Assembly: GCA_964022095.1 (NCBI GenBank)
Contig: CAXHZO010000004.1
Coordinates: 32,001-96,000 of the forward strand
Origin: an uncultured Arcobacteraceae bacterium
Lineage (GTDB): Bacteria; Campylobacterota; Campylobacteria; Campylobacterales; Arcobacteraceae
DNA: 64,000 nucleotides
Reading direction: 5' to 3'
Of this stretch, positions 27,152 through 42,916 are shown one piece after another; the first letter of the stretch is position 1; each line of letters starts with the position of its first letter. The notes beneath the pieces were generated by a model. The model made no database searches. It worked only from the letters and a program-made list of their open reading frames with translations, and was not told the origin of the DNA. Both the position numbers and the translations under genes were made by a program.

Positions 27152-28032
27152 TGGCATTTAATTTTGATTACAAAAAGCCAAAAGTAATAGCAGAAATCGG
27201 TTGTAATCACATGGGTGATTTTAATATTGCAAAAGAATTAATATCTCTAGCAAAACATAGCGGCGCGAAATACGTAAAGTTTCAAAAAAGAAATAATAAA
27301 GAACTATTGACTAAAGAACAGTATGAAGCTCCTCATCCTGTACCTGAGAACTCTTATGGAAATACATACGGAGAACATAGAGAGTTTTTAGAATTTAGTA
27401 AAGAACAACATAAACAATTAAAAGAATATTGTGATTCGATTGATGTTATTTATTCTACTTCAGTTTGGGATGTAACAAGTGCTAAAGAGATGATTGATTT
27501 TGAACCAGAGTTTCTTAAAGTACCTTCTGCTTGTAACAATAATTTTGAAATGTTAAGAATTTTAAGGGATGATTTTAAAGGACAAGTTCAATTATCAATT
27601 GGTATGACAAGTCGTGAAGAGGTTGAAGAAATAGTTAAGTTTTTTGAAGAGACTAATCAAGCGAAATCTAGGCTCCTTATTTATTCTTGTACGTCAGGGT
27701 ATCCTGTACCTTTTGAAGATGTTTCTTTATTGGAAATAAATTGGCTATATGAAAATTATGAAAATAGAATATATGAGATAGGTTTTTCAGGGCATCATTT
27801 AGGAATAGCTGTTGATGTCGCTGCTTACACATTAGGAGCTAGATGGATTGAAAGGCATTTTACAAAAGATATTAAATGGAAAGGAACTGACCATAGTGCT
27901 TCCTTAATGCCTGATGGTTTAAGAAGATTAAATAGGGATTTAAATGCTACATATAAAGCTTTGAATTTCAAATCTAACGATATTCTGCCAATTGAACAAG
28001 TTCAAAGAGATAAACTAAAGAATAGAAAGTAA
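27151..28032 (+). CDS. NeuB-family nonulosonate synthase without the C-terminal SAF/AFP domain (KDN-9-P synthase-like)
   Basis: IAEIGCNHMG, VKFQKR, CTSGYP, GFSGHH, IERHFT, GTDHSASL; ends at 293 aa. Confidence 0.9.
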   Translation: MAFNFDYKKPKVIAEIGCNHMGDFNIAKELISLAKHSGAKYVKFQKRNNKELLTKEQYEAPHPVPENSYGNTYGEHREFLEFSKEQHKQLKEYCDSIDVIYSTSVWDVTSAKEMIDFEPEFLKVPSACNNNFEMLRILRDDFKGQVQLSIGMTSREEVEEIVKFFEETNQAKSRLLIYSCTSGYPVPFEDVSLLEINWLYENYENRIYEIGFSGHHLGIAVDVAAYTLGARWIERHFTKDIKWKGTDHSASLMPDGLRRLNRDLNATYKALNFKSNDILPIEQVQRDKLKNRK

Positions 28033-28035
28033 ACT

Positions 28036-28884
28036 ATGCAATGTTATTTATGTAAGAGTGAAGATCATAAAAAAAGAGATGGAAGTGTCAGAGATAATAA
28101 GAAACTAGATATTTTAGAATGTAATAATTGTGGTTTAGTTTTTCTATCTGATGATAAGCATATTGACAATAACTTTTATGAAGAATCTAAAATGCATAAA
28201 GATTTTGATTTTTCAAAATGGAGAAAGCAAACATTACAAGATGATAGTAGAAGATTTGAATTTTTAAAAAACAGTATTTCAAATAAAACTATTTTAGATT
28301 TTGGAAGTGGAAATGGTGGTTTTTTGAATTTGTCAAAAGAATTAGCATTAGATGTTTGTGGAGTTGAGTTAGAAGTAGCCGTAAAGTCTTATTATGAAAA
28401 AGAAGAGATAAAATTAATTAAGAGTCTTGATGAGTGTAAAAATAAATATGATTTGATTACTTCTTTTCATGTTATTGAGCATCTAAAAGATCCGATTAAT
28501 ATTTTAGGGAAGTTAAAAGATCTTCTATATGATGATGGAACGATTATTATAGAAGTTCCTAATGCAAATGATGCTTTATTAAGTATATATAATAGTGAAT
28601 CTTTTTCTCATTTTACTTATTGGAGCTGTCATTTATATCTTTTTACTTCATTTACATTAGAACTATTAGCTAAAAAAGCAGGTTTAAAAGTTGAATTTAT
28701 AAAGCATATTCAAAGATATCCTCTTTCAAACCATTTGTATTGGTTGAGTAATAATAAACCAGGTGGTCATGAAAAATGGGGAAGTTTTATTGATTCTAGT
28801 GAGTTATCAAATGCATATGAAAATCAGTTAGCCTCACTGCAAGCAACTGATACTATTATTGCAAGTTTTAAAAAGGAATCTTAA
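28036..28884 (+). CDS. Class I SAM-dependent methyltransferase with N-terminal Zn ribbon
   Basis: CYLC...CNNCG; ILDFGSGNG; FHVIEHLKDP; EVPN. Confidence 0.85.
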   Translation: MQCYLCKSEDHKKRDGSVRDNKKLDILECNNCGLVFLSDDKHIDNNFYEESKMHKDFDFSKWRKQTLQDDSRRFEFLKNSISNKTILDFGSGNGGFLNLSKELALDVCGVELEVAVKSYYEKEEIKLIKSLDECKNKYDLITSFHVIEHLKDPINILGKLKDLLYDDGTIIIEVPNANDALLSIYNSESFSHFTYWSCHLYLFTSFTLELLAKKAGLKVEFIKHIQRYPLSNHLYWLSNNKPGGHEKWGSFIDSSELSNAYENQLASLQATDTIIASFKKES

Positions 28885-30050
28885 TGAATATAGCATTTAT
28901 ACCTCTTAGATGTGGGAGTAAATCAATTCCTTTTAAAAATATAAAAGAGTTTTGTGGTAAACCTTTGGTTTATTGGAATCTAAAAGCAATTGAAGAATCA
29001 AAATTAATTGATATTGTTTATGTTGCTACAGATTGTGAAGAAGTTGTTGCAGAAATTAATAAATTTAATTTTTCAAAAGTTGTTTTATATAAAAGAGATG
29101 AAGAAAATGCAAGGGATACATCTCCTACAGAAGATGTAATGATAGAATTTTTAACTAAGAATAAACAAAATGATGAAGATTTATTTTTATTAGTTCAAGC
29201 AACTTCTCCAATTACACAAAGTTATGATTTTGATAATGCTATTATGCAGTTAAAAGACTCAGATAAAGATTCATTATTAACTGTTGTAAATGAAAAAAGA
29301 TTTTTTTGGAATAGTGATGGTACACCTTTAAATTATGATTATAAAAATAGACCAAGACGTCAAGATTTTGAAGGTTTATATTTAGAAAATGGAGCTTTTT
29401 ATATTAATAAAATAAAAAATATTTTAAAGGATAATAATAGATTGTCTGGAAAAATAGATTTATATATTATGAATGATTATACTTCAATTGAAATTGATGA
29501 GCCTCTTGATTGGAATATTGCTGAGAGATATATGCAAGAGCATATTCTGTCAAAAAAAGAGAATAAATTAAAAAAGAAAATAAAACTTTTTTTGAGTGAT
29601 GTTGATGGAACTTTAACTGATGCTGGTATGTATTATGATGTCAATGGAAATGAGTTGAAAAAATTTAATACTCATGATGGCAAAGGTTTTGAATTACTAA
29701 GAAATGCTGGAATTAAAACAGGGATTTTAACTAGTGAAAATACTAAGATTGTTGAAAATAGAGCAAAAAAATTAAAAGTTGATTATTTATACCAAGGTGT
29801 TGGTTATAAAGGTAAACTTGAAGTTGCAAAAGAAATTTGTAAAAAAGAACAAATAAGCTTAGATGAAGTTGCTTATATTGGAGATGATGTTAATTGTAAA
29901 GAACTTTTATCAAATGTTGGAATTGCAGCTTGTCCTTCAAATGCAATAAGCGAAATTAAAGAAATGTACAATATAATTAATTTAAATAAATCAGGTGGTA
30001 ATGGTGCTGTTCGAGAATTTATTGATTTATTAATGAAAGAGAATATTTAA
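28884..30050 (+). CDS. CMP-nonulosonate synthetase fused to a KdsC/YrbI-type HAD phosphatase
   Basis: PLRCGSKSIPFKN, QATSP, RPRRQD, ENGAFY, EIDEPLD; C-terminal DVDGTLTD, AYIGDD, GGNGAVRE. Confidence 0.92.
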   Translation: MNIAFIPLRCGSKSIPFKNIKEFCGKPLVYWNLKAIEESKLIDIVYVATDCEEVVAEINKFNFSKVVLYKRDEENARDTSPTEDVMIEFLTKNKQNDEDLFLLVQATSPITQSYDFDNAIMQLKDSDKDSLLTVVNEKRFFWNSDGTPLNYDYKNRPRRQDFEGLYLENGAFYINKIKNILKDNNRLSGKIDLYIMNDYTSIEIDEPLDWNIAERYMQEHILSKKENKLKKKIKLFLSDVDGTLTDAGMYYDVNGNELKKFNTHDGKGFELLRNAGIKTGILTSENTKIVENRAKKLKVDYLYQGVGYKGKLEVAKEICKKEQISLDEVAYIGDDVNCKELLSNVGIAACPSNAISEIKEMYNIINLNKSGGNGAVREFIDLLMKENI

Positions 30051-32023
30051 TGGAAAATAATAAATTAGAAGTTCAATCTCAATTATCTGAGTTAATTCAA
30101 CAAGACTTAGTAAATATTATTACTGATTATTCAAAAACTTCAATGCTAAATCTTGATTTAGTTGTAACATTAGTACAAGATATTAACCTATTAAAGACAT
30201 ATGATGTTAAGTATATCCATAATGAAGAGTTAAATGAGATTATCTCTTTAATGAAAGAAGAATTAAAGAATAGATCACAAGCTAGAGTTATTGCTTTATT
30301 AACAGTATTTGACTTTATTGAAAATCCAGTTGAAGATTTCAAAAAGCTAATTTATATTAATTTATCATTAAAAGTTTCGTCTGAATTTTTTATTGAATCT
30401 TTTAATTTCTTTAATGTACTTGCTGGAAGTGTTAAAGAATTATTTGAAGATTTTGTTAAGTATATTTTTAATGATAATTTTTTAGATGTTGATAAAAACC
30501 TTCAAATAGAAGTGATTTTTAAACTATGGGGTATGTCTTTACAAGTTTATCATGATAATGAAGCTTCATCTCATGCTTATTGTTTATTAAAAGAATTATT
30601 TAATAAAGCTATAAAGAAAGAAAAAACAGAAGTAGCTTTTTGGCTTTACTATACTCCTTTACATTATTTCCATTCTGGAACGGGAAATGATATTGATAAA
30701 CTTAATGAAAAGTTTAAAAATGAAATAGAAAAACCTCTTGAAGAGTATATTCTAAAAAAATTAGTACCGAAATATCAAATTAAACCAAATACAAATAAAA
30801 TAAATAAAAATGGAAAAGTAAAAGTTGCCTTTGTAATGCAAAGAATAATAAGACACTCAACAACAAATGTTTTATATTCTTTACTTAAAAACTTAATGAG
30901 AATAAACAGTGAAAAATATGAATTTATCTTATATGATTTATCTTTTCCTGAAGCAGGTGGAAGTCAACAAGATTTTGTTGAAGAGTTTATAGCTTTAGGT
31001 GTAAAATATATTAATCTTCATAGTGAAACTATGGGTGAAAATAATGCTACTTATTCTTTATTTGAAAAATGTATTAAAACTAGAGAAAGATTAATTGATG
31101 ATAAAATTGATATTTTAATTGGTTTACACACAAGAGTAGAATATATATTCTTATATGCTACAAGAACAGCTCCCGTGCAGATATACTGGTACCATAGTAG
31201 TAATGCTGTATACGATATAGTTGGAATTGATGAGATAATCTCTCATACTGAAACAAATAAAAAGAGTTTAAACAAAAATATATTTAGTTTGCCTATTGAT
31301 TTAGAAGAATATAATAAAAAAGTAAACTCACAAGAAGTTATAAATATTAAAAATAAATTTGGAAAAAATAAATTTATTCTAGGCTATATTGGTCGTTTGA
31401 TTAAGATAGATGATAATAGATATTTGAATTGTGTAAAGCAAATATTAGATAAAAATCAAAACACAGTATTTCTTGCTTGTGGAGATGGCGATACTTCTTC
31501 AATTAGAGAAAAAATTAAAGATTTAGGAATTGAAGATAGATTCTTTTTTGAAGGTTTCATTAATACAGATATTTATGGGCACGTAATAGATTTATTTTTA
31601 GCTTCTTTTGTAAACGGAGGAGCTGCTTTACAAGAATTTATTTATAAGAAAAAACCTTATGTGATTAGATATAGTAATTTTGAAAATATTGTAGCGTTAT
31701 ATAATAAAAATCCTATTATTGATAAATTGAAAGTTGATAATGATAGTTTTATTTTAAAAAGTATTTATACAAAAGAAGATGTAGGAAACTTAACTAATAA
31801 AGGGTATTTATTTGAAGACAACCCTTACTTCCCAACCTATTCAGGACTTCCTTTTGTTAAAGATGAAGAAGCCTTTATTAAAGTTGCTAATTTCTTTATT
31901 AATAATCCTTCTATTTGTGAAAAAATAGGTGAAGAAACTTATTATAAAGCAATTAAGAGTGAAGAAATAAGAAAATATTCTTTTTTAAAGGTTCTAGATG
32001 ATATTACATGTAATGCATTATGA
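30050..32023 (+). CDS. GT41 (O-GlcNAc transferase/HMW1C)-like glycosyltransferase
   Basis: KVAFV...HSTT, IDILIGLHT, RTAPVQIYW, GYIGRLIKID, DLFLASF resemble GT41 catalytic blocks; helical N-terminal half. Confidence 0.6.
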   Translation: MENNKLEVQSQLSELIQQDLVNIITDYSKTSMLNLDLVVTLVQDINLLKTYDVKYIHNEELNEIISLMKEELKNRSQARVIALLTVFDFIENPVEDFKKLIYINLSLKVSSEFFIESFNFFNVLAGSVKELFEDFVKYIFNDNFLDVDKNLQIEVIFKLWGMSLQVYHDNEASSHAYCLLKELFNKAIKKEKTEVAFWLYYTPLHYFHSGTGNDIDKLNEKFKNEIEKPLEEYILKKLVPKYQIKPNTNKINKNGKVKVAFVMQRIIRHSTTNVLYSLLKNLMRINSEKYEFILYDLSFPEAGGSQQDFVEEFIALGVKYINLHSETMGENNATYSLFEKCIKTRERLIDDKIDILIGLHTRVEYIFLYATRTAPVQIYWYHSSNAVYDIVGIDEIISHTETNKKSLNKNIFSLPIDLEEYNKKVNSQEVINIKNKFGKNKFILGYIGRLIKIDDNRYLNCVKQILDKNQNTVFLACGDGDTSSIREKIKDLGIEDRFFFEGFINTDIYGHVIDLFLASFVNGGAALQEFIYKKKPYVIRYSNFENIVALYNKNPIIDKLKVDNDSFILKSIYTKEDVGNLTNKGYLFEDNPYFPTYSGLPFVKDEEAFIKVANFFINNPSICEKIGEETYYKAIKSEEIRKYSFLKVLDDITCNAL

Positions 32024-32999
32024 TAAATTCATAGAACCTTTTATTGATTTTGTAAATGATAATTTTGATTTATCTAAGCACAAATTTATAATAATCAACA
32101 ATCCTATGCAAGAAGTATTAGAAAAATTTAAAAATGTAGAGTTTTTAAATACTGATGATGAACTTAATAATAAAGTTCTAAAGAATATTAGAAAATCTGA
32201 AAAAACAATTTTACACGGTTTATTTAGAAAAAGAATAAATGAATTATTATATAACAATTTAGAGTTATTAAAAAAAACATATTGGGTTATGTGGGGAGGA
32301 GATTTTTATTTCCCTGAGAAACAAGATGAAATACAAAAGTACATTATAAGAAATGTAGCATATTTAGTAACTGGGACTGATGGTGAAGTTGAATATGTAC
32401 GAAAAAATTATGATGCTAGAGGAAAGCATTTAAAGGCATTTGTTTATCCTAGTAATCTATTTAAAGAAATTACTTTAAAAGAACGAAATGATACAAGTAG
32501 TTTAAATATTTTGATAGGAAATTCTTCAACTATTACAAATCAGCATATTGAAGTGTTTAATAAATTAGAAAAATTTAAAAATAAAGATATGAATATTTTT
32601 GTTCCTTTATCTTATGGTGATTTTCAATATGGAATGCAAGTCATGAAACATGGCTATGAAATGTTTGGTAATAAATTTAAACCTATTATAGATTTTATGG
32701 CAGAGGATAAATATTATGAATTTTTATCAACAATAGATATAGCTTTTTTTAATCATAATAGACAGCAAGGAATGGGGAATATAATTACACTTTTAGGATT
32801 TGGCAAAACTGTTTTTATGAACTCTAGTATAAGTACCTTTGGAATGTTTAAACAAGAAGGATTAAAAGTTTTTGATATGAAAAATTTTTCTCTTGATCTT
32901 TTAAAAATTGAAGAAAAAGAAAAAAATATAGAGATAATAAAGAAGACTTTTTCTAAAGAAAACTTTACAGAAGAATTAAAGAGAGTTTTTGATTATTAG
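31998..32999 (+). CDS. WecF-like (GT56) dTDP-Fuc4N(acyl) transferase
   Basis: WVMWGGDFY, ILIGNSS...NQHIE, VPLSYG, HNRQQGMGNI. Confidence 0.8.
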   Translation: MILHVMHYDKFIEPFIDFVNDNFDLSKHKFIIINNPMQEVLEKFKNVEFLNTDDELNNKVLKNIRKSEKTILHGLFRKRINELLYNNLELLKKTYWVMWGGDFYFPEKQDEIQKYIIRNVAYLVTGTDGEVEYVRKNYDARGKHLKAFVYPSNLFKEITLKERNDTSSLNILIGNSSTITNQHIEVFNKLEKFKNKDMNIFVPLSYGDFQYGMQVMKHGYEMFGNKFKPIIDFMAEDKYYEFLSTIDIAFFNHNRQQGMGNIITLLGFGKTVFMNSSISTFGMFKQEGLKVFDMKNFSLDLLKIEEKEKNIEIIKKTFSKENFTEELKRVFDY

Positions 33000-33011
33000 A
33001 AGGAAATAAAA

Positions 33012-33683
33012 ATGAAAGTAGTAGGACTGATTCCTTTTTGGATGAATAAGGGTAAAGATAGAGATATGGTTAAATTATCAGGTAAATACCTGATTGAATA
33101 TACTATAGAGTTATTAAATAGATCTCAGCTTATTGAAGAAACAATTATCTATGCCTCTAATCAAGAATTCGAAAATTATTTAGATGAAAGTTTAGATTTT
33201 AGTTTTCTAAAGCGTCCCTTATCTCTTGATACTTCAACTACTCGATTAGAAGAAATCGTTGAAGAGTTTTTTAAAGAAAGAGAAGATGTGGATATTATTG
33301 TTCTAGTTCATCCTTATTGTCCTTTTATTAAAATTAAAACAATAGATGAATGTATAAATGCTGTAAAATCTACTGATTATGATTCTTCTTTAACTTCTAT
33401 GCAAATAAAAAAACTATCTTGGTATAAAGGGGAACCATTAAATTTTGAGAAAAATGAACTTTCTCCTAAATTAAAAAATATAGAGCCAATTATAATAGAG
33501 CATGGTTTAACATATGTTATTAAAAAGGATACTTTTAAAAAAACAAAATCTAGAATAGGTTTAAATCCTTATTTTAAATACATCAATCAGTTTGAAGGTT
33601 ATGAAATTGATAATAATGATGATTTATTATTAGCAGAATTAATTGTTAATTCAGGCTTTCATAGAGGAGCAATTAATGATTGA
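33012..33683 (+). CDS. Cytidylyltransferase-3 (CMP-Neu5Ac/Kdo synthetase) fold protein with degenerate N-terminal motif
   Basis: LSGKYLIEYTIE, KRPLSL, HPYCPFI, EIDNNDDL; lacks the RxGSKxxxxKN motif. Confidence 0.7.
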   Translation: MKVVGLIPFWMNKGKDRDMVKLSGKYLIEYTIELLNRSQLIEETIIYASNQEFENYLDESLDFSFLKRPLSLDTSTTRLEEIVEEFFKEREDVDIIVLVHPYCPFIKIKTIDECINAVKSTDYDSSLTSMQIKKLSWYKGEPLNFEKNELSPKLKNIEPIIIEHGLTYVIKKDTFKKTKSRIGLNPYFKYINQFEGYEIDNNDDLLLAELIVNSGFHRGAIND

Positions 33684-34806
33684 AATATCAAAAATAATTA
33701 ATGTAGATTTTGATAATAGTCCTTATTCAATCCATATTAAAAGAAATATTATTAAGGATTTACCTCTACTTCTTAAAGAAAAAACTAATAATAAAAAAGT
33801 GATTGTAATTGCTGATTCTTATTTTGAAAGCTTTTGTTCTGAACACTTATCTTCTAATTTTAGTGAATATGGTTTTGATATTATATTTCATTATATGGAT
33901 GCAGGAAAAAACAATAAAAATATACAAGAAGTTCTTAGAATTTATGCAGTATTAGAGGAAAATGATTTTTCAAGAGATTCAACCTTAATTGCACTAGGTG
34001 GAGGAGTAATTGGAGATTTAGCAGGCTTTGTAGCAAGTACATGGTATAGAGGTATGAATTTAGTTCATATTCCTACAACTTTAATGGCCATGGTAGATAG
34101 TAGTGTTGGTGGTAAGGTAGCAATTAATTTTCGAAAAACTATAAATGGAATAGGCAATTATTATCATCCTATACTTACTTTAATGGATTTAGAGTTTATA
34201 GATAGTCTTTCAAATAGAGATTATAATTCAGGATTAGCAGAAGTGATTAAATGTGCAATAATTTCAGATAAAAAGTTTTTTAATTATTTGAAGCAGAATA
34301 CTCAAAAAATTTTAAAAAGAGAACAAAAAACACTTCTAGACTTAGTCTCTAGAACAATAGAAATAAAAATAGAACATGTTTTAGGAGATGTTAAAGAGGG
34401 AAATAAAAGACTTCTTTTGAACTATGGACATACTTTGGGGCATGCAATTGAGATTTCTACAGAAAAGAATCATTTAGAGAGGTATCGTCATGGAGAAGGT
34501 GTATCTATTGGAATAATGGCTGTTTGTTATATTGCACATAAATATTATAATTGTTCCAAAATAGTTATTGAGGAGTGTGAAAAGTTATTGAAAGCCTTCA
34601 ATTTACCAACTTTTGTTGATTCTAAAAGTATTGGATTTGAAAAAGAAAAACTTTTAAAACAATGTTTGAGAAATGTGATGAAAGATAAAAAACGTATTAA
34701 TCATAAACTTCGAATAATTTTAGTTAATGAGATCGGCCAAGCTTCAATTAACGCAAATGTACCTTTTGAGCAGGTAGAAGAAGCATTTAAATATATTATT
34801 CAATAA
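33676..34806 (+). CDS. 3-dehydroquinate synthase family sugar-phosphate cyclase
   Basis: GGGVIGDLAGF, PTTLMAMVDSSVGGK, GLAEVIK, LNYGHTLGHAIE, HGEGV; ATG 33676 after GGAG (ORF track starts at TTG 33643). Confidence 0.9.
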   Translation: MIEISKIINVDFDNSPYSIHIKRNIIKDLPLLLKEKTNNKKVIVIADSYFESFCSEHLSSNFSEYGFDIIFHYMDAGKNNKNIQEVLRIYAVLEENDFSRDSTLIALGGGVIGDLAGFVASTWYRGMNLVHIPTTLMAMVDSSVGGKVAINFRKTINGIGNYYHPILTLMDLEFIDSLSNRDYNSGLAEVIKCAIISDKKFFNYLKQNTQKILKREQKTLLDLVSRTIEIKIEHVLGDVKEGNKRLLLNYGHTLGHAIEISTEKNHLERYRHGEGVSIGIMAVCYIAHKYYNCSKIVIEECEKLLKAFNLPTFVDSKSIGFEKEKLLKQCLRNVMKDKKRINHKLRIILVNEIGQASINANVPFEQVEEAFKYIIQ

Positions 34807-34819
34807 AAAAAGGGAAGAT

Positions 34820-35581
34820 ATGTCAACAATAATGGATATGAATAATAAAGTATGTATTATAACTGGAGTAGGAAAAGGAATTGGTTATGCCACAGCAAAG
34901 CTTTTTAAACAGCAAGGAGCTAAACTTGCTTTGATAACTCGTTCAGAAGAGGATCTTTTTAAGTTAAAGCAAGAACTTAATATGAATGAAGATGATATTT
35001 ACTGCAAATCAGGAGATGTCTCTGAAGAGAAAGTAGTTAAACAGTTTGTATCTGCTGTATATGAAAAATTTGGAAGAATAGATGTTTTAATTAATAATGC
35101 AGGAATGAGATTTCGAAAAAACTTTCTAGAAATTAGTTATGATGAATGGCAAAATGTTTTGAATGTTAATTTAGGAAGTACTTTTCTTTTTTGTAAAGAG
35201 GTTGGAAAACATATGGTAAATCAAAAATCAGGAGTTATTGTTAATATGGCTTCTATTGTTGGAACTTTAGGATTAGCAGAATTAACTGGTTATGCATCTT
35301 CAAAGGGAGCTATTATTAGTTTAACAAAATCACTTGCTTTAGAGTGGGCAGAATGTGGTATTCGTGTAAATGCAATTGCTCCTGGTTTTTGTGAAACTTC
35401 TTATACAGAAAATTTTAAAAAGAAAGAAGAGTTATATCAGTTTACTTTAGAAAGAACTCCAATGAAAAGATGGGGAAGCTCAGAAGATATTGCTAATACA
35501 TGTCTTTATTTATCTTCAAACCTTTCAAGTTATGTAACAGGAGAAGTTTTATCTGTTGATGGAGGTTGGAGTGCATGGTAA
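34820..35581 (+). CDS. Short-chain dehydrogenase/reductase
   Basis: TGVGKGIG, NNAG, YASSK, NAIAPG, TGEVLSVDGG. Confidence 0.93.
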   Translation: MSTIMDMNNKVCIITGVGKGIGYATAKLFKQQGAKLALITRSEEDLFKLKQELNMNEDDIYCKSGDVSEEKVVKQFVSAVYEKFGRIDVLINNAGMRFRKNFLEISYDEWQNVLNVNLGSTFLFCKEVGKHMVNQKSGVIVNMASIVGTLGLAELTGYASSKGAIISLTKSLALEWAECGIRVNAIAPGFCETSYTENFKKKEELYQFTLERTPMKRWGSSEDIANTCLYLSSNLSSYVTGEVLSVDGGWSAW

Positions 35582-36276
35582 CTAAACTTTCAATGGTTAT
35601 TCCTATAAGAAAAGGAAGTACAAGAACCTTAAATAAAAATACTCGTGCATTTACCCCTGATGGGAAAAGTTTGACACAAATAAAAATCGAAGAGCTAGAA
35701 AAAGTTAAATATGCTGATGAAATTGTTGTTACAACTAATTGCGATGAAATTGAAAATCAAATTAATAAAGTTAAGAAAACAAATAAAATAAAAGTTGTTC
35801 GACGTCCTCAAGAACTATGCTTAGATACAACATTAGTTAAAGATATAATAAATTATATGCCAACAATTTGTTGTGGTGAACATATTCTTTGGTTGCATGT
35901 TACTAGTCCATTTGTAAAAGCTGAAGATTATGATGGAGCAATTAAAAAATATTTTGAAGAATTAGAAAATGGATATGACTCTTTGATGTCAGTAACTTTA
36001 CATAAACAATTTATGTGGAGTGATAAAAAAAAGAGAATAATAAATACTGATGATAAAGTTAATAAATGGCCTAATACCCAAGACTTAGACCCTTTATATG
36101 AGATTAATCATGCTTTTTATATCAATTCACGAGAAAACTACATTCGTACAAGTGATAGAATAGGTAACAATCCTTATTTATATGAGTTGAAAAATGAAAA
36201 ATCAATTGATATTGATTGGGAAGAAGACTTTTTATATGCCCAAAGAATTTATCCTGCAATAAAAGGATTAAAGTAA
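35575..36276 (+). CDS. Cytidylyltransferase-3 (acylneuraminate cytidylyltransferase family) protein
   Basis: PIRKGSTRTLNKN, HVTSPF, TQDLDP, DIDWEEDF; ATG 35575 overlaps the SDR stop. Confidence 0.85.
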   Translation: MVTKLSMVIPIRKGSTRTLNKNTRAFTPDGKSLTQIKIEELEKVKYADEIVVTTNCDEIENQINKVKKTNKIKVVRRPQELCLDTTLVKDIINYMPTICCGEHILWLHVTSPFVKAEDYDGAIKKYFEELENGYDSLMSVTLHKQFMWSDKKKRIINTDDKVNKWPNTQDLDPLYEINHAFYINSRENYIRTSDRIGNNPYLYELKNEKSIDIDWEEDFLYAQRIYPAIKGLK

Positions 36277-37517
36277 TGTTGATTCAAGTTGATGGATGGT
36301 TTGCAGGAGGGAAGACTCTTCTTTGGTCTTTACTAGATGGACACAAAGATATATTTGTAAATCCTATCCATGATTATTCTTTTTCTATGTTTTTAGATAA
36401 AAAAGATGATGACGAATGGATTTTAAAAAAACACTCTATAGTACTTAGAAAAATTTTAAGTACATCAGAATATTACAAATTTGAGAAAATATATTTAGAA
36501 AAAAAATATCAAATACATTTTTCAACAAATAAAATAATGGATGTAGATTATAATGTAGATTTTTATAAATTTGATAAATTATTTTTTTCAAGATTAAATG
36601 ATATGAAATCATGGACTATTGAAGAAATTATAAATTGTCTTTATTCAAGTTATTATGATATTTATAAAGGTTTAGAAAAGATAAAATACCCTAAGTATTT
36701 TGCTTCTATGAGTCATCCTGGACATTTTGATAAATATCAAAATATTCCAAATATTTTTCCAAATATGAAAAGTATTTTAGTAAAAAGAAATATCAAAAAT
36801 ATTATTGCAACAAGAATGAATAGAAAAGAAAGACCAAAGGATTTAAACTCTTTTCAAGCATTTAGAACACCTTTAAAAAAAATACTTGATACAAAAGAGA
36901 TTGAAAAGATACTAAACTATTTTGAAACTTATGATGAACTTCAAAAAAAGTTTCCTTCTCAATTTTTTATAGTTGATTTTGATGAGTTAGTTCTTAATCC
37001 ACAAGAAGCAATGAAAAAGGTTGCTAATTTTTTAGAAATAGAATATGAAGATATTTTATCTATCCCAACTAGAGATGGAAATCTTTTAGAACTTGATGGG
37101 GTAAGTTTTATTGGAAAAGAAAATGATACTTTTGAAAATCTTTTAACCAAAGAAGAACAAAATATAATAGACACTAGGATCAATACATATAATAAAAATA
37201 TAAATAGTGATGAAGTAAATGTAGATAAAAATAAAGCATTTTTTAGAACATTTAACCATCTTCTAATTGATTTAGATGTTATTAGTAGGAAGTTTAATAA
37301 AATAGCAATTTATGGGAATCATTTTCTTGCTGATAGTATAAATTCATATTTAGCAGCAAAATCAATAGGTGTTTTTAATGAAGAGACAATTAACTCCTTA
37401 GCTGAAGATTACGAAGTTATATTAGTAGCTTCTTTAGGTAATGAAGAGATAGTATCTAAATTATTGGTTGAAAAATACAATATAGAAAAAGAAAAAATAA
37501 TATATATACATATTTAG
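36276..37517 (+). CDS. Sulfotransferase-family protein with extra C-terminal domain
   Basis: AGGKTLLWSLLDGH (5'-PSB-like loop), VKRNIKNIIATR, FDELVLNPQEAMKKVANFLEI; ATG 36276 overlaps the upstream stop. Confidence 0.65.
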   Translation: MLIQVDGWFAGGKTLLWSLLDGHKDIFVNPIHDYSFSMFLDKKDDDEWILKKHSIVLRKILSTSEYYKFEKIYLEKKYQIHFSTNKIMDVDYNVDFYKFDKLFFSRLNDMKSWTIEEIINCLYSSYYDIYKGLEKIKYPKYFASMSHPGHFDKYQNIPNIFPNMKSILVKRNIKNIIATRMNRKERPKDLNSFQAFRTPLKKILDTKEIEKILNYFETYDELQKKFPSQFFIVDFDELVLNPQEAMKKVANFLEIEYEDILSIPTRDGNLLELDGVSFIGKENDTFENLLTKEEQNIIDTRINTYNKNINSDEVNVDKNKAFFRTFNHLLIDLDVISRKFNKIAIYGNHFLADSINSYLAAKSIGVFNEETINSLAEDYEVILVASLGNEEIVSKLLVEKYNIEKEKIIYIHI

Positions 37518-37524
37518 GAATAGA

Positions 37525-38703
37525 ATGAAAAAAGTGTTAGTAATTGGTGGGGGAAAGTGGCAAGTACCTATAGTAAAAAAAGTTAAAGAATTAGGCTTTG
37601 AATGTATTTGTTCAAATTTATATGAAAATTCTGAAGCTTTTTCATTTGCTGACTATTCTTATGTAGCCAATGTTTTAGATAAAGAAACAAATTTAGAAAT
37701 TGCTATAAAACATCAAGTAGATGCTGTTATTACAGATCAAACTGATATTGCTGTTAATACAGTTGCTTATATTAATGAAAAATTAAATTTATTAGGGATT
37801 AAAATTGATGATGCAAAAGCATTTACTAATAAGTTATTAATGAGAAAAAATATAAGTGTAAAAGGATTAAGCCACCCAAATTATGAAGTTTGTAAAAGCG
37901 TTGAAGATGTTGTGGCTTTTTTTAAAGAGCAGAATAAACCAATAATTATTAAGCCTTTAAATAATCAGTCAAGTAGAGGAGTAAACTATATATCTTCACT
38001 AGATACTATTCCTAATTTGGTTAAGGATACATTGGCTAATAGCAATGAAGAAATATTTTTAGCAGAAGAATATATTCAAGGAATAGAATTAACAGCAGAA
38101 GGATATAAGTTTAAAAATACTAATCATTGTACTTTAGGGGTGTCTAAAAAAACACATTACAATAATATTATTGGTGTTGCCCAATCTTTACAATATCAGA
38201 AAACTTTTGAAGAGTTTGATATTGATGAATTAAAAAGAATTAATGATGAAATATTTAAAAATTTGCCTTTTTGTATTACTCATGTAGAATATAAATATTT
38301 TAATAAAAAATTTTATTTAGTAGAAGCTGCAATAAGAGGAGGAGGAACTAGAATTTCTTCAGATATAGTTCCTATTCATAGTGGATATGATATTAATAAA
38401 TTTTTGATTTACGATTTATTAGATATAAAATTTAAAAAAGAAAAATCTTGCTCTACTAGTGATTTTGTTATATTGAAATTTTTAGATTTTAAAGAGGGCA
38501 AAGTTAAACAGATAAATCACAAATGCAACAAAAATCCAAATATAATTGATTGGGAATTAGAGTTTAAAAAAGGTCATCAAATCCAATCTCCAAATGATGA
38601 TAGAAGTCGTTTAGGGTATTTTATTTTAAAATCAGATAGTTTAGAAAAACTAAATAAGGATATAGAAAATTTTGAGAATAGCATCGATATAGTTTATGAA
38701 TAA
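37525..38703 (+). CDS. ATP-grasp domain protein (putative amide ligase)
   Basis: FTNKLLMR, IIKPLNNQSSRGV, AEEYIQG, HVEY, VEAAIRGGG. Confidence 0.85.
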   Translation: MKKVLVIGGGKWQVPIVKKVKELGFECICSNLYENSEAFSFADYSYVANVLDKETNLEIAIKHQVDAVITDQTDIAVNTVAYINEKLNLLGIKIDDAKAFTNKLLMRKNISVKGLSHPNYEVCKSVEDVVAFFKEQNKPIIIKPLNNQSSRGVNYISSLDTIPNLVKDTLANSNEEIFLAEEYIQGIELTAEGYKFKNTNHCTLGVSKKTHYNNIIGVAQSLQYQKTFEEFDIDELKRINDEIFKNLPFCITHVEYKYFNKKFYLVEAAIRGGGTRISSDIVPIHSGYDINKFLIYDLLDIKFKKEKSCSTSDFVILKFLDFKEGKVKQINHKCNKNPNIIDWELEFKKGHQIQSPNDDRSRLGYFILKSDSLEKLNKDIENFENSIDIVYE

Positions 38704-38712
38704 GGAAAAGTT

Positions 38713-39402
38713 TTGCTAACACAAGAAGATAAAGAAAAAGTTATACAAAGATATACAAATAGATATATTGAGCATGGTAAATGTCCAAAAACTTTAGGAT
38801 GGGATAAAGGTAAACAAGACTTAAGATATCATATTTTATTTGAAAAATTTGATTTGGAAAATAAATCAATATTGGATATTGGTTGTGGCTTTGGTGATGC
38901 AAATATTTTATTAAAAAACAAATTTCATAATTATGAGTATACTGGAATTGATATTGTTCCTGATCTTATCAAAGAAGCAAAAGAAGAGTATTCAAATCAA
39001 AACAATATTAATTTTATTTTAGAAGATTTTTTAGCTCATGATTTTGGAGATAAAAAATTTGATATCGTTGTGGGTTCGGGTATTTTTAATTTTAAATTAG
39101 CTGATAGAGATAACTATGAGTACATAAATTCAATTTTAGAAAAAGCATTTCATCTTTCAAAAGAAGGTATTTCTTTTGACTTCTTATCTAATAAGGTTGA
39201 CTTTGAATATGAACTTACTTTTCATAGTGATCCTAAAATAATTTTAGATAAAGCATATAATCTAAGCAATAATCTTATTTTAAATAATAGCTATATGCCA
39301 TTTGAGTTTGCAATTAGTGTTTTTAAAGATATTTCCTTTGAAAAAAAAGATACAATATTTACAAGGTATAAAAATGAAAATGACTATTATAGATTTTATT
39401 AA
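38713..39402 (+). CDS. Class I SAM-dependent methyltransferase
   Basis: ILDIGCGFG, YTGIDI, SGIFN; TTG start with AAGGA RBS. Confidence 0.88.
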   Translation: MLTQEDKEKVIQRYTNRYIEHGKCPKTLGWDKGKQDLRYHILFEKFDLENKSILDIGCGFGDANILLKNKFHNYEYTGIDIVPDLIKEAKEEYSNQNNINFILEDFLAHDFGDKKFDIVVGSGIFNFKLADRDNYEYINSILEKAFHLSKEGISFDFLSNKVDFEYELTFHSDPKIILDKAYNLSNNLILNNSYMPFEFAISVFKDISFEKKDTIFTRYKNENDYYRFY

Positions 39403-40018
39403 AAGAAATAGAGTATCAACAACTGAAATTGCTGATTGTATGGGTAAAAAAGGTTCAGTATACAATGTTAATGCAGTAAATAGAGGTCATTTTAAAGTTG
39501 GAAATCTTTTTTATGTATATGCTTGTAATGGTACAAATTGGGATGTTCATGAACAAGTCCAATATGTAAATGATGGAGATATAGTATTTATTGATGCCTT
39601 AGATAATAATGATAAAGCAATTATTGGAGATTTGGTTTCTAAATATTTATTACTATATAAACAAGCAGGTGCGATTGTAACTAATGGATTATTAAGAGAT
39701 GCCCCAAGATTAATAAAAGAAAATTGGGCAATTTGGTGTAAAGGTTTTAATCCAGTAGGGTATATAAATGAAAAAGTTGAATTAAATTCTGAACAAAAAA
39801 AATTAATTGAGAAAAAAAAATCTTTTTATCAAGATTGTATAGCAGTTTGTGATGATACAGGTGTTGTGTTGATCCCTAAAGAATTTCATAATAAAGAATT
39901 CCTTGAAAATATAAAATATATAGAAGAACAAGAAGATATCTGGTTTGACTGTATAGATAGACAAAAGCTTTCAACTTTTGAAACAGTATGTTTAAAAAAA
40001 TATGAGGATATAAATTGA
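39374..40018 (+). CDS. RraA / HMG-aldolase family protein
   Basis: STTEIADC, GDIVFID, AIIGDL, GLLRD, DDTGVVLIP; likely ATG at 39374 or 39380 rather than 39302. Confidence 0.8.
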   Translation: MKMTIIDFIKRNRVSTTEIADCMGKKGSVYNVNAVNRGHFKVGNLFYVYACNGTNWDVHEQVQYVNDGDIVFIDALDNNDKAIIGDLVSKYLLLYKQAGAIVTNGLLRDAPRLIKENWAIWCKGFNPVGYINEKVELNSEQKKLIEKKKSFYQDCIAVCDDTGVVLIPKEFHNKEFLENIKYIEEQEDIWFDCIDRQKLSTFETVCLKKYEDIN

Positions 40019-41145
40019 TACATTTTAATAAACCACCTTATACTTCTTTAGAAAAAAAGTTTGTAAATGAAGCAATGCAAAATGTAACAATCTCTGGAGA
40101 TGGACCTTTTACTAATAAATGTGAAAAGTGGTTTGAAAAAGAATTACAATGTGAAAAAGCTCTTTTAACTCCTTCTTGTACTCATGCTTTAGAAATGATG
40201 GCAATTTTAATTGATATAAAAGAAGGTGATGAGGTAATAATGCCTTCTTATACATTTGTATCTACTGCAAATGCTTTTGCAATAAGAGGAGCAAAAATAG
40301 TTTTTGTTGATATTAAAGCAGATACATTAAATATTGATGAAGATAAAATTGAAGATGCAATTTCAGATAAAACAAAAGCAATTGTAGTTGTTCATTATGC
40401 AGGAGTTTCTTGCAATATGGATAAAATAATGACTCTCTCAGATAAATATGATATTTTTGTTTTAGAGGATGCTGCACAAGGTGTAAAGAGTTATTATAAA
40501 GAGAAACCATTAGGAACCATTGGTCATTTTGGCGCATTTAGTTTCCATGAAACAAAAAATATAACTAGCGCTGGAGAGGGTGGTTTACTAATTATAAATG
40601 ATAAACGTTTTACACAAAGAGCTGAGATTATTCGTGAAAAAGGAACAAATAGAAAACTATTTTTTAGAGGTTTAGTTGATAAATATAGTTGGGTAGATTT
40701 AGGTAGTAGTTATTTATTAAATGATGTTAGTGCAGCATATCTATGGGCACAAATTCAAATGATAGATAATATTCAAGTAGATAGACTTAATACTTGGAAT
40801 AGATATGAAAAAGGCTTAAAACAATTATCATCAAAAGGTTTTATAACTTTACCGACTGTTCCTAGTGACTGCACAAATAATGCACATATGTTTTATATAA
40901 AAGTAAGAGATTTAGAAGAAAGAGAGTCTTTAATTAAATACTTAAAGCAAAATGATATTAATGCCGTATTTCATTACGTTCCACTTCACACAGCACCAGC
41001 AGGAAAGATTTTTGGTAAGTTTGAAGGAATTGATGAGTTTACAACAACTGAAAGTGAAAGATTAGTTCGGTTACCTTTATATTATGGTTTAGACAAAGAA
41101 AAGGTAGAATATATAATACAGAAAATAAAGAGTTTTTATGAATAA
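40015..41145 (+). CDS. wecE: dTDP-4-amino-4,6-dideoxygalactose transaminase
   Basis: SGDGPFT, LTPSCTHALEM, EDAAQG, FSFHETKN, REKGTNR, DKYSWVDLGSS, VFHYVPLH typical of WecE/RffA. Confidence 0.9.
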   Translation: MIHFNKPPYTSLEKKFVNEAMQNVTISGDGPFTNKCEKWFEKELQCEKALLTPSCTHALEMMAILIDIKEGDEVIMPSYTFVSTANAFAIRGAKIVFVDIKADTLNIDEDKIEDAISDKTKAIVVVHYAGVSCNMDKIMTLSDKYDIFVLEDAAQGVKSYYKEKPLGTIGHFGAFSFHETKNITSAGEGGLLIINDKRFTQRAEIIREKGTNRKLFFRGLVDKYSWVDLGSSYLLNDVSAAYLWAQIQMIDNIQVDRLNTWNRYEKGLKQLSSKGFITLPTVPSDCTNNAHMFYIKVRDLEERESLIKYLKQNDINAVFHYVPLHTAPAGKIFGKFEGIDEFTTTESERLVRLPLYYGLDKEKVEYIIQKIKSFYE

Positions 41146-41845
41146 TACAGAATTAAACTCTCCTAGTAAGTATCATCACAATAGGCGACAGATTAATTGG
41201 TTATTATATGATATTACTGATAAGTATTTAACAGAGTTTTCTAAGTATTATAAAGGAACGTTAGTAGATTTAGGTTGTGGAACAGCACCTTATAAAGAGT
41301 TTTTCTTACAATATGCAAATTCATATATTGGGGTAGATTGGTCAGAAAGTATTCATGAGTTTAAAGGTGATGTTATTTCAAATTTAAATGAAAAAATCAA
41401 TTTAGAGGATGATTTTGCAGATACAGTAGTATCTTTATCTGTTATGGAACATTTATATAACCCAGAAGTTTTTTTATCAGAAGCTTATAGAGTTTTAAAA
41501 AATGATGGAGTATTTGTTTTAGGTGTTCCTTGGATGTGGTGGATTCATGAAGCTCCTCATGATTATTATAGGTATACGTCTTTTGGATTAAAACACTTAT
41601 TACAAAAAGCTGGTTTTTCAGAAGTCGAAATTATTCCAACTTCAGGTTTTTTTACAACTATATTTATAAAAATGAACTATTTTAGTGTGAATTTTTTAAA
41701 AGGTTCTAAATTTAAAGTTAATTTATTAAGAACATTATTTAGACCTTTTTGGTTTCTATCTCAAAAACTTGCGCCTTATTTAGATAAATATGATAAAGAT
41801 TGGAACAAAGAGTGTCAAAGTTATTTTGTTATTGCAAAAAAGTAA
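41138..41845 (+). CDS. Class I SAM-dependent methyltransferase
   Basis: VDLGCGTAPY, VMEH, HEAPHDYYRYT. Confidence 0.88.
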   Translation: MNNTELNSPSKYHHNRRQINWLLYDITDKYLTEFSKYYKGTLVDLGCGTAPYKEFFLQYANSYIGVDWSESIHEFKGDVISNLNEKINLEDDFADTVVSLSVMEHLYNPEVFLSEAYRVLKNDGVFVLGVPWMWWIHEAPHDYYRYTSFGLKHLLQKAGFSEVEIIPTSGFFTTIFIKMNYFSVNFLKGSKFKVNLLRTLFRPFWFLSQKLAPYLDKYDKDWNKECQSYFVIAKK

Positions 41846-41854
41846 GGATTAAAA

Positions 41855-42916
41855 ATGATTTGGTTTGATTTAGTTACTCCTAAATCTGTTTTATTTTTTA
41901 TACCTATTATAAAAGAAATAGAAAACAGAGGTAAAAAGGTTTTAATAACTGCACGAGAAGGAAATGGCTATTCCGAAGTTGTGGAATTATTAAAGTTATA
42001 TAATATAGATTTTGTTAATAGAGGAGAATTTGGAGGTGCTTGTTTAAAAGACAAGCTTTATGCTTCAATTGAGCGTCAAAAAGCCTTGATGGAGTTTGTT
42101 ACTTTATATGAAATCGATAGATTAGTTTGTTTATGTTCTGTTGATGCAAATAGGGTTGCATTTGGTTTAGGCATTCCTGTAATAAACTTTTACGATATTC
42201 CCTTATCTGATCATAAAACTAATTTTAAAAAAGCATTACCTCAAGCGCGATTAACTTTACCTCTTGCTAGTAAAGTATTTAAGCCGTTTGTTGTTCCTGA
42301 TGAAATATTCTTAAGATTTTCATTGGATGAAGAGCAGATCTTTGAGTATAATTTTATTGATCCTTTAATTTGGTTAAAAGATTTTAAGCCGGATTATTCT
42401 TATGTAGAAGAGATACTAAAACCTTATAATTTGGATCTTTCAAAGAAACTTATTGTAATTAGAGAAGAAGAGTATAAGTCTTCATATGTTGATAAAAAGT
42501 ATCCTATTCTTTATGAAGTTTTAGAAGAAATAAATAATAAAACTAATTCAAATATCATAATTATTCCACGATATGAAAGTGAATATTTAAAACAAGAATT
42601 CCCTTTTACTACAGTATTAGAAGAGAAGGTAGTTATTCAACATTTATTAGCCTATGCCGATTTATTCATTGGTGGAGGTGGAACTTTAAATACAGAAGCA
42701 TGTTTCTTTAAAACACCTACGATTTCAACTAGAAGTTTTATTTGTCATTATGATAAATATCAAATTGATAATGAATTAATGTATTGGGTTGATACAAAAG
42801 ATGAATTATTAAAAAGAGTATATACTTTGCTTGAAAAAACAAAAAAACAAGAAAAGAGTGTATTTGATAACATGAGTATTGATTTATCCAAAATAGTTGA
42901 TAGCATTTTAAGTTAA
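41855..42916 (+). CDS. DUF354-family protein (GT-B-like fold)
   Basis: MIWFDL, ITAR, RVAFGLGIP, DLFIGGGGTLNTEA. Confidence 0.75.
   Translation: MIWFDLVTPKSVLFFIPIIKEIENRGKKVLITAREGNGYSEVVELLKLYNIDFVNRGEFGGACLKDKLYASIERQKALMEFVTLYEIDRLVCLCSVDANRVAFGLGIPVINFYDIPLSDHKTNFKKALPQARLTLPLASKVFKPFVVPDEIFLRFSLDEEQIFEYNFIDPLIWLKDFKPDYSYVEEILKPYNLDLSKKLIVIREEEYKSSYVDKKYPILYEVLEEINNKTNSNIIIIPRYESEYLKQEFPFTTVLEEKVVIQHLLAYADLFIGGGGTLNTEACFFKTPTISTRSFICHYDKYQIDNELMYWVDTKDELLKRVYTLLEKTKKQEKSVFDNMSIDLSKIVDSILS

Follow-up and report, generated by a model that had tools for sequence, protein, structure and literature searches.

Pathways that prepare CMP-activated acidic sugars, and those in which a sugar-phosphate cyclase supplies a carbocycle, are the described systems closest to the gene block reported here. 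In the CMP-Kdo pathway (KdsA, KdsC and KdsB; Kdo, 3-deoxy-D-manno-oct-2-ulosonic acid), the product of condensation between phosphoenolpyruvate (PEP) and an aldose phosphate, a 3-deoxy-2-ulosonate phosphate, is dephosphorylated and then CMP-activated. In validamycin biosynthesis, the 2-epi-5-epi-valiolone synthase (EEVS) ValA, GDP-valienol and the pseudo-glycosyltransferase VldE take part, and we know of no other precedent for a nucleotide-activated carbasugar donor. In the Maf flagellin glycosylation systems of Campylobacter and Clostridium botulinum, which use CMP-pseudaminic or CMP-legionaminic acid, an island with Maf and CMP-transferases lies by the flagellin genes, and Maf enzymes are reported to accept several CMP-ulosonic acids (PMC11339370). 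Here we describe a 64,000-nucleotide stretch of DNA ('the window') from an uncultured Arcobacteraceae bacterium (genome G000; GenBank assembly GCA_964022095.1), in which such an island harbours four adjoining genes that encode, respectively, a diverged CMP-sugar-synthetase-like protein (P0122), a paralog of 3-dehydroquinate synthase (DHQS), a classical short-chain dehydrogenase/reductase (SDR) and a canonical cytidylyltransferase (P0123). The block probably supplies glycans with a CMP-activated seven-carbon acid derived from 3-deoxy-D-arabino-heptulosonate 7-phosphate (DAHP).

A second, diverged DHQS gene in a coupled block

The window was assigned to families by Pfam and NCBIfam scans of open reading frames (ORFs) of at least 110 amino acids (aa). 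The ORFs of the DHQS-like protein and of P0123 were listed from TTG codons at 33643 (387 aa) and 35566, respectively; the true starts are probably the ATG at 33676, which has AGGAG 6 nt upstream and an 8-nt overlap with the stop of the upstream gene, and the ATG at 35575, which is preceded by GGAGG and shares the sequence ATGGTAA with the stop of the SDR gene. Given these overlaps and the upstream AGGAG and GGAGG, the genes of the block are translationally coupled. An earlier note on this DNA had described a coupled block of this composition within a glycan island, with no other shikimate genes nearby and with an unusual segment in place of KNxIGxFxQP in the DHQS-like protein. Its description holds on each count: four forward-strand ORFs with the respective family matches and overlapping starts were found (Table 1), no other shikimate gene was present among the window ORFs scanned, and the segment reads TINGIGNYYHP.

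Against TIGR01357, the aroB equivalog model, the DHQS-like protein scored 321 bits (cut-off, 305) and its relatives at five further loci (L003, L106 and those of genomes G555, G777 and G803) 305–319 bits, versus 374–392 bits for housekeeping aroB copies. The earlier note had expected a separate housekeeping aroB in the genome, and would have been contradicted had the paralog been the only one; such a gene is present on another contig of G000 (379.8 bits), beside unrelated genes and with the canonical loop GKNLIGAFHQP, which favours that reading. G489, G555, G777 and G803 each carry a housekeeping aroB (374–392 bits) together with a paralog (305–319 bits), and a better-scoring housekeeping copy was found in all five cassette genomes checked. 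G000 also encodes a class II DAHP synthase (701 bits).

The paralog is 32–42% identical to housekeeping copies. Among solved structures, its best relatives are without exception DHQS (top, 5hvn at 193 bits), with lower scores for other sugar-phosphate cyclases, namely 4p53 (108 bits), which we take to be ValA, an EEVS, 2d2x (97 bits), a 2-deoxy-scyllo-inosose synthase (DOIS), and 5tpr (88 bits), which is presumably a desmethyl-4-deoxygadusol synthase (DDGS). By these scores, the protein falls outside the EEVS, DDGS and DOIS types of cyclase. A fold search of the Atlas returned the DHQS fold (template-modelling (TM) score 0.93), and the second-best family match, TIGR04425, reached 224.8 bits against a cut-off of 400, so that the protein is not a member of that family. 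No longer fused forms were found at E≤1e-60, which is weak evidence. All database relatives named by their source are labelled plain '3-dehydroquinate synthase', and one P0122 relative is labelled 'HAD family hydrolase' (HAD, haloacid dehalogenase). Both kinds of label are likely mis-annotations that propagate; because of the former, metabolic reconstructions miscount the DHQS-like genes.

The paralog belongs to a distinct subfamily

In a large protein database, 119 relatives at 56–67% identity were found among the 120 best matches; source names, where given, were Sulfurovum, Arcobacter and Arcobacteraceae. A hidden Markov model of the subfamily was built from an alignment of 40 members and tested on the aroB ORFs of 118 loci, where members scored 605–651 bits and all other aroB ORFs ≤291.5 bits. 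A tree was then computed from 77 rows, consisting of the window protein, 19 of the other 39 alignment members, L003, L106 and 55 housekeeping sequences (those of even-numbered loci plus L001, L004, L005 and L117, with ORFs >700 aa dropped). All 22 subfamily rows fall into a single clade (Shimodaira–Hasegawa-like approximate likelihood-ratio test (SH-aLRT), 100), whose stem measures 1.27 substitutions per site and is longer than any other internal branch (median, 0.073); the paralog stands apart from housekeeping DHQS, as had been predicted.

When 120 subfamily sequences were compared with 99 housekeeping sequences, 59 positions were conserved and identical in both groups, including the Arg, Lys, Asn, His, Glu and Asp of the conserved catalytic motifs: R125, D141, K147, N157, E189, K192, K231, R245, N249, H252, H256, H272 and K338/K339, whose counterparts in Aspergillus nidulans numbering, mapped by motif, we take to be R130, D146, K152, N162, E194, K197, K250, R264, N268, H271, H275, H287 and K356, respectively. 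The paralog thus retains the positions conserved for NAD, metal and substrate, and its NAD- and metal-binding motifs are intact, as first read. The canonical GKNxIGAFxQP loop and the GE..K motif are, in contrast, missing from the DHQS-like protein: the loop of housekeeping relatives reads GKN[LM][IV]G[AT]F[YH]QP, and where housekeeping sequences have K (0.99), F (0.98), Q (0.96) and E (0.98), at least 99% of the subfamily shows I, Y, H and K, respectively. The Glu of the GE..K motif, E78, is presumably a contact to the adenosine ribose of NAD, and E78K may represent a shift toward NADP. By sequence definition, the protein is an AroB; by loop motif, phylogenetic grouping and genomic role, it is not.

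Recurrence of the cassette across phyla

In the window, the order P0122, DHQS-like gene, SDR gene and P0123 is embedded in the Maf and flagellin island. At L003, in a metagenome-assembled genome (MAG) of Pseudomonadales, flgG-flgL are followed by a P0122-type gene (40% identity), a DHQS-like gene (55%), an SDR gene (62%) and a KdsB-type gene, and then by genes for a 910-aa tetratricopeptide repeat (TPR) protein, flagellin, flaG and fliD. P0122-type, DHQS-like, SDR and KdsB-type genes also adjoin at L130 (genome G555), where a gene for a 391-aa protein follows, and at L134 (G777), where a Wzx-type flippase gene precedes them in a cluster with glycosyltransferase family 2 (GT2), aminotransferase and dehydratase genes. 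L133 (G803) consists of a P0122-type gene, a DHQS-like gene, an aldo-keto reductase gene and a P0123-type gene (65% identity). At L106, on an IMG/VR contig, a HAD-NTP_transferase fusion is followed by a DHQS-like gene (59%), an SDR gene, an MptE-like gene and a gene for a P0123-like cytidylyltransferase fused to a DAHP synthase.

A DHQS-like gene beside a reductase gene and a gene for a canonical CTP_transf_3 enzyme was therefore found at each of the six loci, which span Campylobacterota, the Pseudomonadales MAG and the IMG/VR contig, and a P0122-type gene directly precedes the DHQS-like gene at five of them. Flagellin genes adjoin two (the window and L003), and the cluster with the Wzx-type flippase holds L134. 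Recurrence of the four-gene block had been anticipated, and the combination of DHQS-like protein, reductase and CMP-transferase does recur at 6 of 6 loci, beside flagellar or glycan genes. Indirect support for the pairing of P0122-type and DHQS-like genes comes from the large database, where 18 of 48 P0122 relatives have a longest contig of the same length as that of a DHQS-like relative and, judged by this equality only, are presumably co-located with it. We read the block as one copy of a conserved cassette that would be horizontally mobile.

Among reference genomes, the paralog is rare and patchy: a phylum sample of 401 genomes had it in one (the window's own), an order sample of 401 in two and a sample of 250 from the family to which G555 belongs in three, these samples being overlapping ones. 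In an order sample of 201 genomes, the matches listed outside the window genome are 32–42% identical, with 47 weaker ones beyond these. A scan of genome contigs yielded three loci, among them the subfamily member L003 and the housekeeping locus L004 (loop GKNLVG..YQP, with an upstream 176-aa ORF). A metagenome scan based on the alignment of 40 members returned 80 loci, all of them housekeeping aroB at 31–38% identity; the motifs that it used are ones common to all DHQS. Among plasmids and phages, 123 and 16 matching records, respectively, were all <60% identical (≤36% among those listed), with no subfamily member.

Candidate transferases showed no significant similarity when compared between loci, and no common dedicated transferase emerged from that comparison. 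The 391-aa neighbour at L130 matches a polysialyltransferase model weakly (23.3 bits, at the cut-off); a sequence search against solved structures gave no match, and its single-sequence AlphaFold model was unusable (mean predicted local distance difference test (pLDDT), 35.5). The MptE-like protein of L106 scored 33.9 bits, just under the cut-off of 34.6. For the 910-aa protein of L003, the TPR part alone matched solved structures. Two carbamoyltransferase genes and GT1, GT2 and GT-D-like genes surround the L106 cassette. The Pseudomonas aeruginosa b-type flagellin island PA1088–PA1091, which the L003 block resembles in position by gene order, was considered as a possible equivalent and dropped.

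The probable activating enzyme and the reductase

The two outer genes of the block had both been called cytidylyltransferases in the earlier note. Both proteins do score above the CTP_transf_3 cut-off of 22.6 bits (P0122, 45.7; P0123, 42.4), but they are not equivalent. The Pfam match of P0122 is restricted to residues 18–130, in its N-terminal half. In CMP-ulosonic-acid synthetases, an N-terminal P-loop of the form P-A-R...S-x-R/K...K-N holds the phosphates of CTP; P0122 has IPFW there, not IPAR, followed by a variable, low-confidence loop, so that both the P-loop Arg and the feature as a whole are lacking. The Trp of that segment, W10, is conserved in at least 90% of 37 family members. An AlphaFold2 model of P0122 (pLDDT 86.5) found the CMP-Kdn synthetase 9t4z as its best Foldseek match (Kdn, 3-deoxy-D-glycero-D-galacto-nonulosonic acid; TM 0.76), and CMP-Kdn and CMP-Neu5Ac synthetases superimposed on it at TM 0.70–0.77 (Neu5Ac, N-acetylneuraminic acid); P0122 thus has the fold of a CMP-sialic-acid synthetase.

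The P0122 genes form a family of their own. The window protein is 40–50% identical to the products of the same-position genes at L003, L130, L133 and L134. In a profile search of 1.84 billion representatives, considering the best 150 matches, the core family with IP[FY]W comprised 14 matches by regular expression (9 of them within the top 15) and more by eye, and the next relatives carry P[IL]K..S.RLP.KN (77 of the 150). Among 34 long representatives of the clade, fusions to a HAD phosphatase (19), an HMGL-like aldolase (4) and WbqC, MptE-like and SIS domains (one each) were found, and eight have no second domain. The HAD and aldolase fusions suggest that the wider clade works with enzymes that form and dephosphorylate 2-keto-3-deoxy acids. 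Atlas neighbours of P0122 include CTP_transf_3 domains fused to RraA-like, cupin and SDR domains. A predicted complex of P0122 with the DHQS-like protein scored 0.02, which counts neither for nor against binding. Because the P-loop Arg is lacking, P0122 is probably an accessory protein and not the activating enzyme.

P0123, with the P-loop IPIRKGSTRTLNKN and the segment SIDIDWEED (DID motif), aligns to the mouse CMP-Neu5Ac synthetase 1qwj, and is 65% identical to its counterpart at L133 and 34% to the N-terminal domain of the L106 DAHP-synthase fusion. In its place, L003, L130 and L134 carry a KdsB-type enzyme whose copies are 62–64% identical across phyla; those of L003 and L134 scored 257.7 and 260.6 bits, respectively, against the KdsB subfamily cut-off of 255. 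The P-loop of these partners, IPARY.S.RF.GKPL, has the features expected of a synthetase, as does that of P0123. From the P-loops, we conclude that the activating enzyme should be P0123, or the KdsB-type enzyme where present.

The SDR is 62% identical to its Pseudomonadales partner at L003. At L133, in a Sulfurovaceae genome, an unrelated aldo-keto reductase (230.8 bits) takes its place by non-orthologous displacement; the conserved function thus appears to be a carbonyl reduction, which by this comparison appears to be a required step of the cassette. An Arg after the second beta-strand of an SDR indicates NADPH; its presence in the window protein (LALITRSEE) suggests that this SDR is NADPH-dependent. 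In searches of family models and of solved structures alike, the SDR otherwise finds generic best matches, including FabG, gluconate 5-dehydrogenase and KduD (2-keto-3-deoxygluconate 5-dehydrogenase), all below their cut-offs.

Probable substrate and proposed pathway

The fusion at L106 is a 498-aa protein that consists of a cytidylyltransferase domain and a type I-beta DAHP synthase. Its C-terminal domain exceeds the cut-offs of two DAHP synthase models (TIGR01361, 361.3 versus 267.75 bits; NF006421, 409.2 versus 335) and falls far below that of the model for 3-deoxy-D-manno-octulosonate 8-phosphate (KDO8P) synthase (103.5 versus 314). Together with the retention of all phosphate and carboxylate ligands in the DHQS-like enzyme, this fusion, the strongest indication available, points to DAHP, not a NeuB product, as the most likely substrate of the cassette. 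The earlier note had proposed a ulosonate phosphate that could be either of the two; of these, DAHP gains from the fusion, and the NeuB product loses on two grounds. In elimination of the DHQS type, the carbon that bears the phosphate must be joined to the ring carbon that neighbours the oxidised position, and on chemical reasoning the phosphate of a nonulosonate 9-phosphate would lie two carbons too far from the ring. Moreover, no NeuB gene was found beside the cassette at the other five loci.

What the analysis shows is the gene content, the paralogy, the conserved catalytic positions, the recurrence and the DAHP-synthase fusion, whereas each chemical step, the carbocyclic nature of the product and its transfer to flagellin are inferred. 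The probable output of the cassette is a CMP-activated acid with seven carbons, derived from DAHP and destined for glycans. For the form of this acid we tentatively favour a carbocyclic, quinate-type product, which would arise as follows. DAHP would be drawn from the shikimate pathway, where it is made by the housekeeping class II DAHP synthase. The DHQS-like paralog would transiently oxidise C5, release the 7-phosphate, re-reduce and close the ring, yielding 3-dehydroquinate or a close stereoisomer; as the phosphate would leave in this step, no separate phosphatase is needed in the four-gene versions. Reduction of the ketone that is left, by the SDR and probably with NADPH, would give a quinate-type tetrol acid. 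P0123, or a KdsB-type enzyme in its stead, would then place CMP on the tertiary hydroxyl beside the carboxylate, as KdsB does for Kdo; in a carbocycle, this hydroxyl would correspond to the anomeric position on which KdsB and NeuA enzymes act. Finally, a Maf-type or other transferase would pass the product to flagellin in the window or to surface polysaccharides elsewhere. That the donor is CMP-quinate or a stereoisomer, attached by a Maf-type or sialyltransferase-like enzyme to Ser/Thr of flagellin or to polysaccharides, is doubtful when taken as a whole. Its transfer could proceed via elimination-addition or with carboxylate assistance, not via an oxocarbenium ion.

Several points weigh against the carbocyclic route. 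The housekeeping AroB already supplies dehydroquinate, which suggests that a diverged paralog may use another substrate or make another product. At least ten fixed replacements lie beside catalytic residues in the subfamily (E78K, Q131H, G155T, K156I, F162Y, Q164H, Y193C, V234H, A246L and A275G), and these changes near the active site, together with the long stem, suggest that something in the paralog differs. On chemical grounds, CMP on a tertiary carbon makes a poor glycosyl donor where no ring oxygen is present. The candidate transferases resemble users of CMP-ketosides (the weak polysialyltransferase match at L130, the MptE-like protein at L106 and Maf in the window), and a true ketoside donor would fit such sialyltransferase-like and Maf-like neighbours better. 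The P0122-type gene, found at five of six loci, is not accounted for by the proposed pathway. In all, six loci were examined.

These points lead to the strongest alternative, in which the DHQS-like enzyme acts on DAHP as a 7-phospho-lyase without aldol ring closure, and a non-cyclised 3,7-dideoxy-hept-2-ulosonic acid is CMP-activated. The anomeric oxygen of the substrate would possibly be blocked, with P0122 involved, and the reductase would act on a 5- or 6-keto group; the product, a ketose acid with a terminal methyl group like pseudaminic and legionaminic acids, would be transferred by sialyltransferase-like or Maf enzymes. The KdsB-type activating enzyme at three loci is in accord with such a ketose acid, as are the long stem and the fixed second-shell changes, which suggest altered chemistry, and the below-cut-off SDR matches to 2-keto-3-deoxygluconate and gluconate 5-dehydrogenases. 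The polysialyltransferase and MptE/Maf families, which include users of CMP-ketosides, are represented among the neighbours by the at-cut-off match of L130 (23.3 bits), the just-under match of L106 (33.9 bits) and Maf in the window. The alternative is at odds with the retention of all conserved catalytic positions and with the score above the aroB equivalog cut-off, and it would need an extra trick, since the dephosphorylated DHQS intermediate is reported to cyclise spontaneously. To our knowledge, no such acid occurs in glycans, and a search of the literature on heptulosonic acids gave nothing relevant. The C. botulinum Maf, in turn, is reported to take CMP-Kdo and CMP-Neu5Ac (PMC11339370; bioRxiv 10.1101/2020.06.03.131540). 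We regard the non-cyclised acid as unlikely, if a serious competitor; quinate and 3,7-dideoxy-heptulosonate are isomers (C7H12O6) of the same mass.

It is improbable that the DHQS-like protein and the SDR make a dehydroquinate-derived substituent (for example, an acyl or ether group) that is not CMP-activated, with the cytidylyltransferases serving a Kdn-like acid or Kdo. Such a division of labour would account for two nucleotidyltransferase-like genes per locus where one would do, and the island of the window has its own module of NeuB, phosphatase and CMP-transferase along with ATP-grasp and methyltransferase genes for side groups. However, L003 and L130 have the four genes without other sugar-acid genes alongside, the KdsB-type partner travels with the cassette (62–64% identity across phyla), and at L106 the DAHP synthase is fused directly to a cytidylyltransferase. 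An ordinary redundant aroB for aromatic amino-acid synthesis, placed in the island by chance, would explain the score above the aroB cut-off and the public naming of the relatives as plain '3-dehydroquinate synthase', but is very improbable in view of the better-scoring housekeeping copy in all five genomes checked, the synteny with reductase and CMP-transferase genes at all six loci across phyla, the separate clade on the longest inner branch and the rare, patchy occurrence (1/401, 2/401 and 3/250 genomes), which does not extend to a same-genus genome.

The flagellin glycosylation island and its surroundings

The island is of the Maf type, in that Maf and CMP-sugar genes adjoin flagellin genes (Table 1). 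Its content runs from a Kdn-like module and glycosyltransferase genes through the block to genes for sulfotransferase-like, ATP-grasp, methyltransferase, RraA-like, WecE-like, DUF354 and Maf proteins. No pse or leg core genes were found in it. The three flagellins are likely the targets of glycosylation; they are equal in size, short for flagellins and encoded immediately downstream of Maf.

Table 1. Positions of the block, its island and other loci mentioned in the text.
Sequence	Feature	Position	Strand	Family match or remark
Window	recA, one border of the island	25006-26043	-	
Window	Flagellin glycosylation island, 18 co-directional genes	26414-44980	+	Pfam and NCBIfam scans
Window	Opening of the island	26414-30050		
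Window	P0122, diverged CMP-sugar-synthetase-like protein, 223 aa	33012..33683	+	CTP_transf_3, 45.7 bits
Window	DHQS-like paralog, 376 aa from ATG	33676..34806	+	DHQ_synthase, 133.5 bits; DHQS_C, 126.6 bits
Window	TINGIGNYYHP subfamily motif of the DHQS-like paralog	34138-34170	+	Residues 166-176 of the 387-aa ORF
Window	SDR, classical short-chain dehydrogenase/reductase, 253 aa	34820..35581	+	adh_short_C2, 228.6 bits
Window	P0123, canonical NeuA/PseF-type cytidylyltransferase	35575..36276	+	CTP_transf_3, 42.4 bits; PseF, 52.7 bits
Window	Genes right after the block	36216-41145		
Window	Maf gene, end of the island	42926-44980	+	MptE-like, 92.8 bits; Maf_flag10_N, 41.4 bits
Window	Three tandem flagellin genes, 282 aa each, other border	45022-47965	-	Flagellin_N and Flagellin_C in each
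Window	Ankyrin-repeat protein, 643 aa	50879-52810		Ank_2, 209 bits
G000, contig C12	Housekeeping aroB	21652-22623		TIGR01357, 379.8 bits
G000, contig C3	Kdo-type cluster (L120, L121)	24394-29808		
L106	Cytidylyltransferase-DAHP synthase fusion, 498 aa	12507-14003		
L133	Aldo-keto reductase	11098-12117		230.8 bits

The opening of the island encodes a protein with CBS and mannose-6-phosphate-isomerase-type cupin domains, a short NeuB, a methyltransferase and a CMP-transferase/phosphatase fusion, and is possibly a Kdn-type module by its family matches. The NeuB has 293 aa, and the NeuB_NnaB model is covered only to position 273 of 329; the phosphatase part of the fusion scored 178.2 bits against the KDN-9-phosphatase model, just below the cut-off of 180. 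Right after the block follow genes for a sulfotransferase-like protein (433 aa), an unusual member for a flagellin glycosylation island, an ATP-grasp ligase, a methyltransferase, an RraA-like aldolase-family protein and a WecE-type aminotransferase (626 bits). In the same-genus genome G585, recA (87% identity) and Maf fragments (72–75%) are common to both genomes and the block was not found there; the island is thus variable. Housekeeping genes make up the remainder of the window, with the nuo operon, murB, topA, eno, trmA and coaBC among them, and in this bacterial housekeeping setting lies a gene for a protein made up of ankyrin repeats nearly throughout.

Elsewhere in G000, a second, Kdo-type cluster encodes an isomerase-like protein with SIS and CBS domains, a KdsA-like protein (one of two PF00793 genes), a HAD phosphatase-like protein, an SLBB-domain protein and a KdsB-like cytidylyltransferase (219.6 bits). 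By its gene content, this cluster suggests a Kdo-containing capsule.

Discussion

If the proposed pathway is true, DAHP or dehydroquinate would leave shikimate metabolism by an unrecognised exit toward the glycosylation of flagella and the cell surface, and a seven-carbon CMP-activated acid would join the eight-carbon (Kdo) and nine-carbon (sialic, pseudaminic and legionaminic) ones. In carbocyclic form, this acid would be the first carbasugar in protein glycosylation, and the shikimate pathway would gain a new branch point. Since motility, phage recognition and immune detection are all influenced by flagellin glycans, a new class of sugar would be of practical interest. No description of the cassette was found in the literature covered, which did not extend to subscription journals, and the main text of the SugarBase preprint contains no occurrence of dehydroquinate, quinate, heptulosonic or shikimate. 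The window contributes the flagellin context, to which the survey of cassettes adds the DAHP synthase fusion, the swap of the reductase and the split between degenerate and canonical cytidylyltransferases.

Compared with AroB (EC 4.2.3.4, TIGR01357; 5hvn, 3zok and 1dqs), the DHQS-like protein has the same fold, scores above the family cut-off and keeps the NAD, metal, phosphate and carboxylate positions; it differs as a second copy of 32–42% identity in a separate clade, with E78K, K156I, F162Y and Q164H, encoded at glycan or flagellar loci, not aro loci. It is closer to DHQS than to ValA (193 bits as DHQS versus 108 bits for 4p53, the structure we take to be ValA), and its second-best match, to the uncharacterised family TIGR04425 (AroB-related putative sugar phosphate phospholyase, cyclizing), stays far below the cut-off. 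The validamycin pathway shares the succession of a DHQS-superfamily cyclase, a nucleotidyltransferase and a transferase, but starts from sedoheptulose 7-phosphate, works with GDP and an allylic leaving group, and yields a secondary metabolite. With the CMP-Kdo pathway, the cassette would share a PEP-derived 3-deoxy-2-ulosonate phosphate that loses its phosphate before CMP activation, by a KdsB-type enzyme at three loci; unlike that pathway, it would start from the seven-carbon DAHP, replace the HAD phosphatase with a DHQS-type lyase/cyclase and add a reductase. The island resembles the known Maf systems in gene content and position, whereas its proposed acid would derive from DAHP and not, as with CMP-pseudaminic and CMP-legionaminic acid, from a UDP- or GDP-hexosamine. 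A carbocycle, if confirmed, would set the cassette categorically apart from all of these systems; otherwise, it would be a variant among the pathways to CMP-activated acidic sugars.

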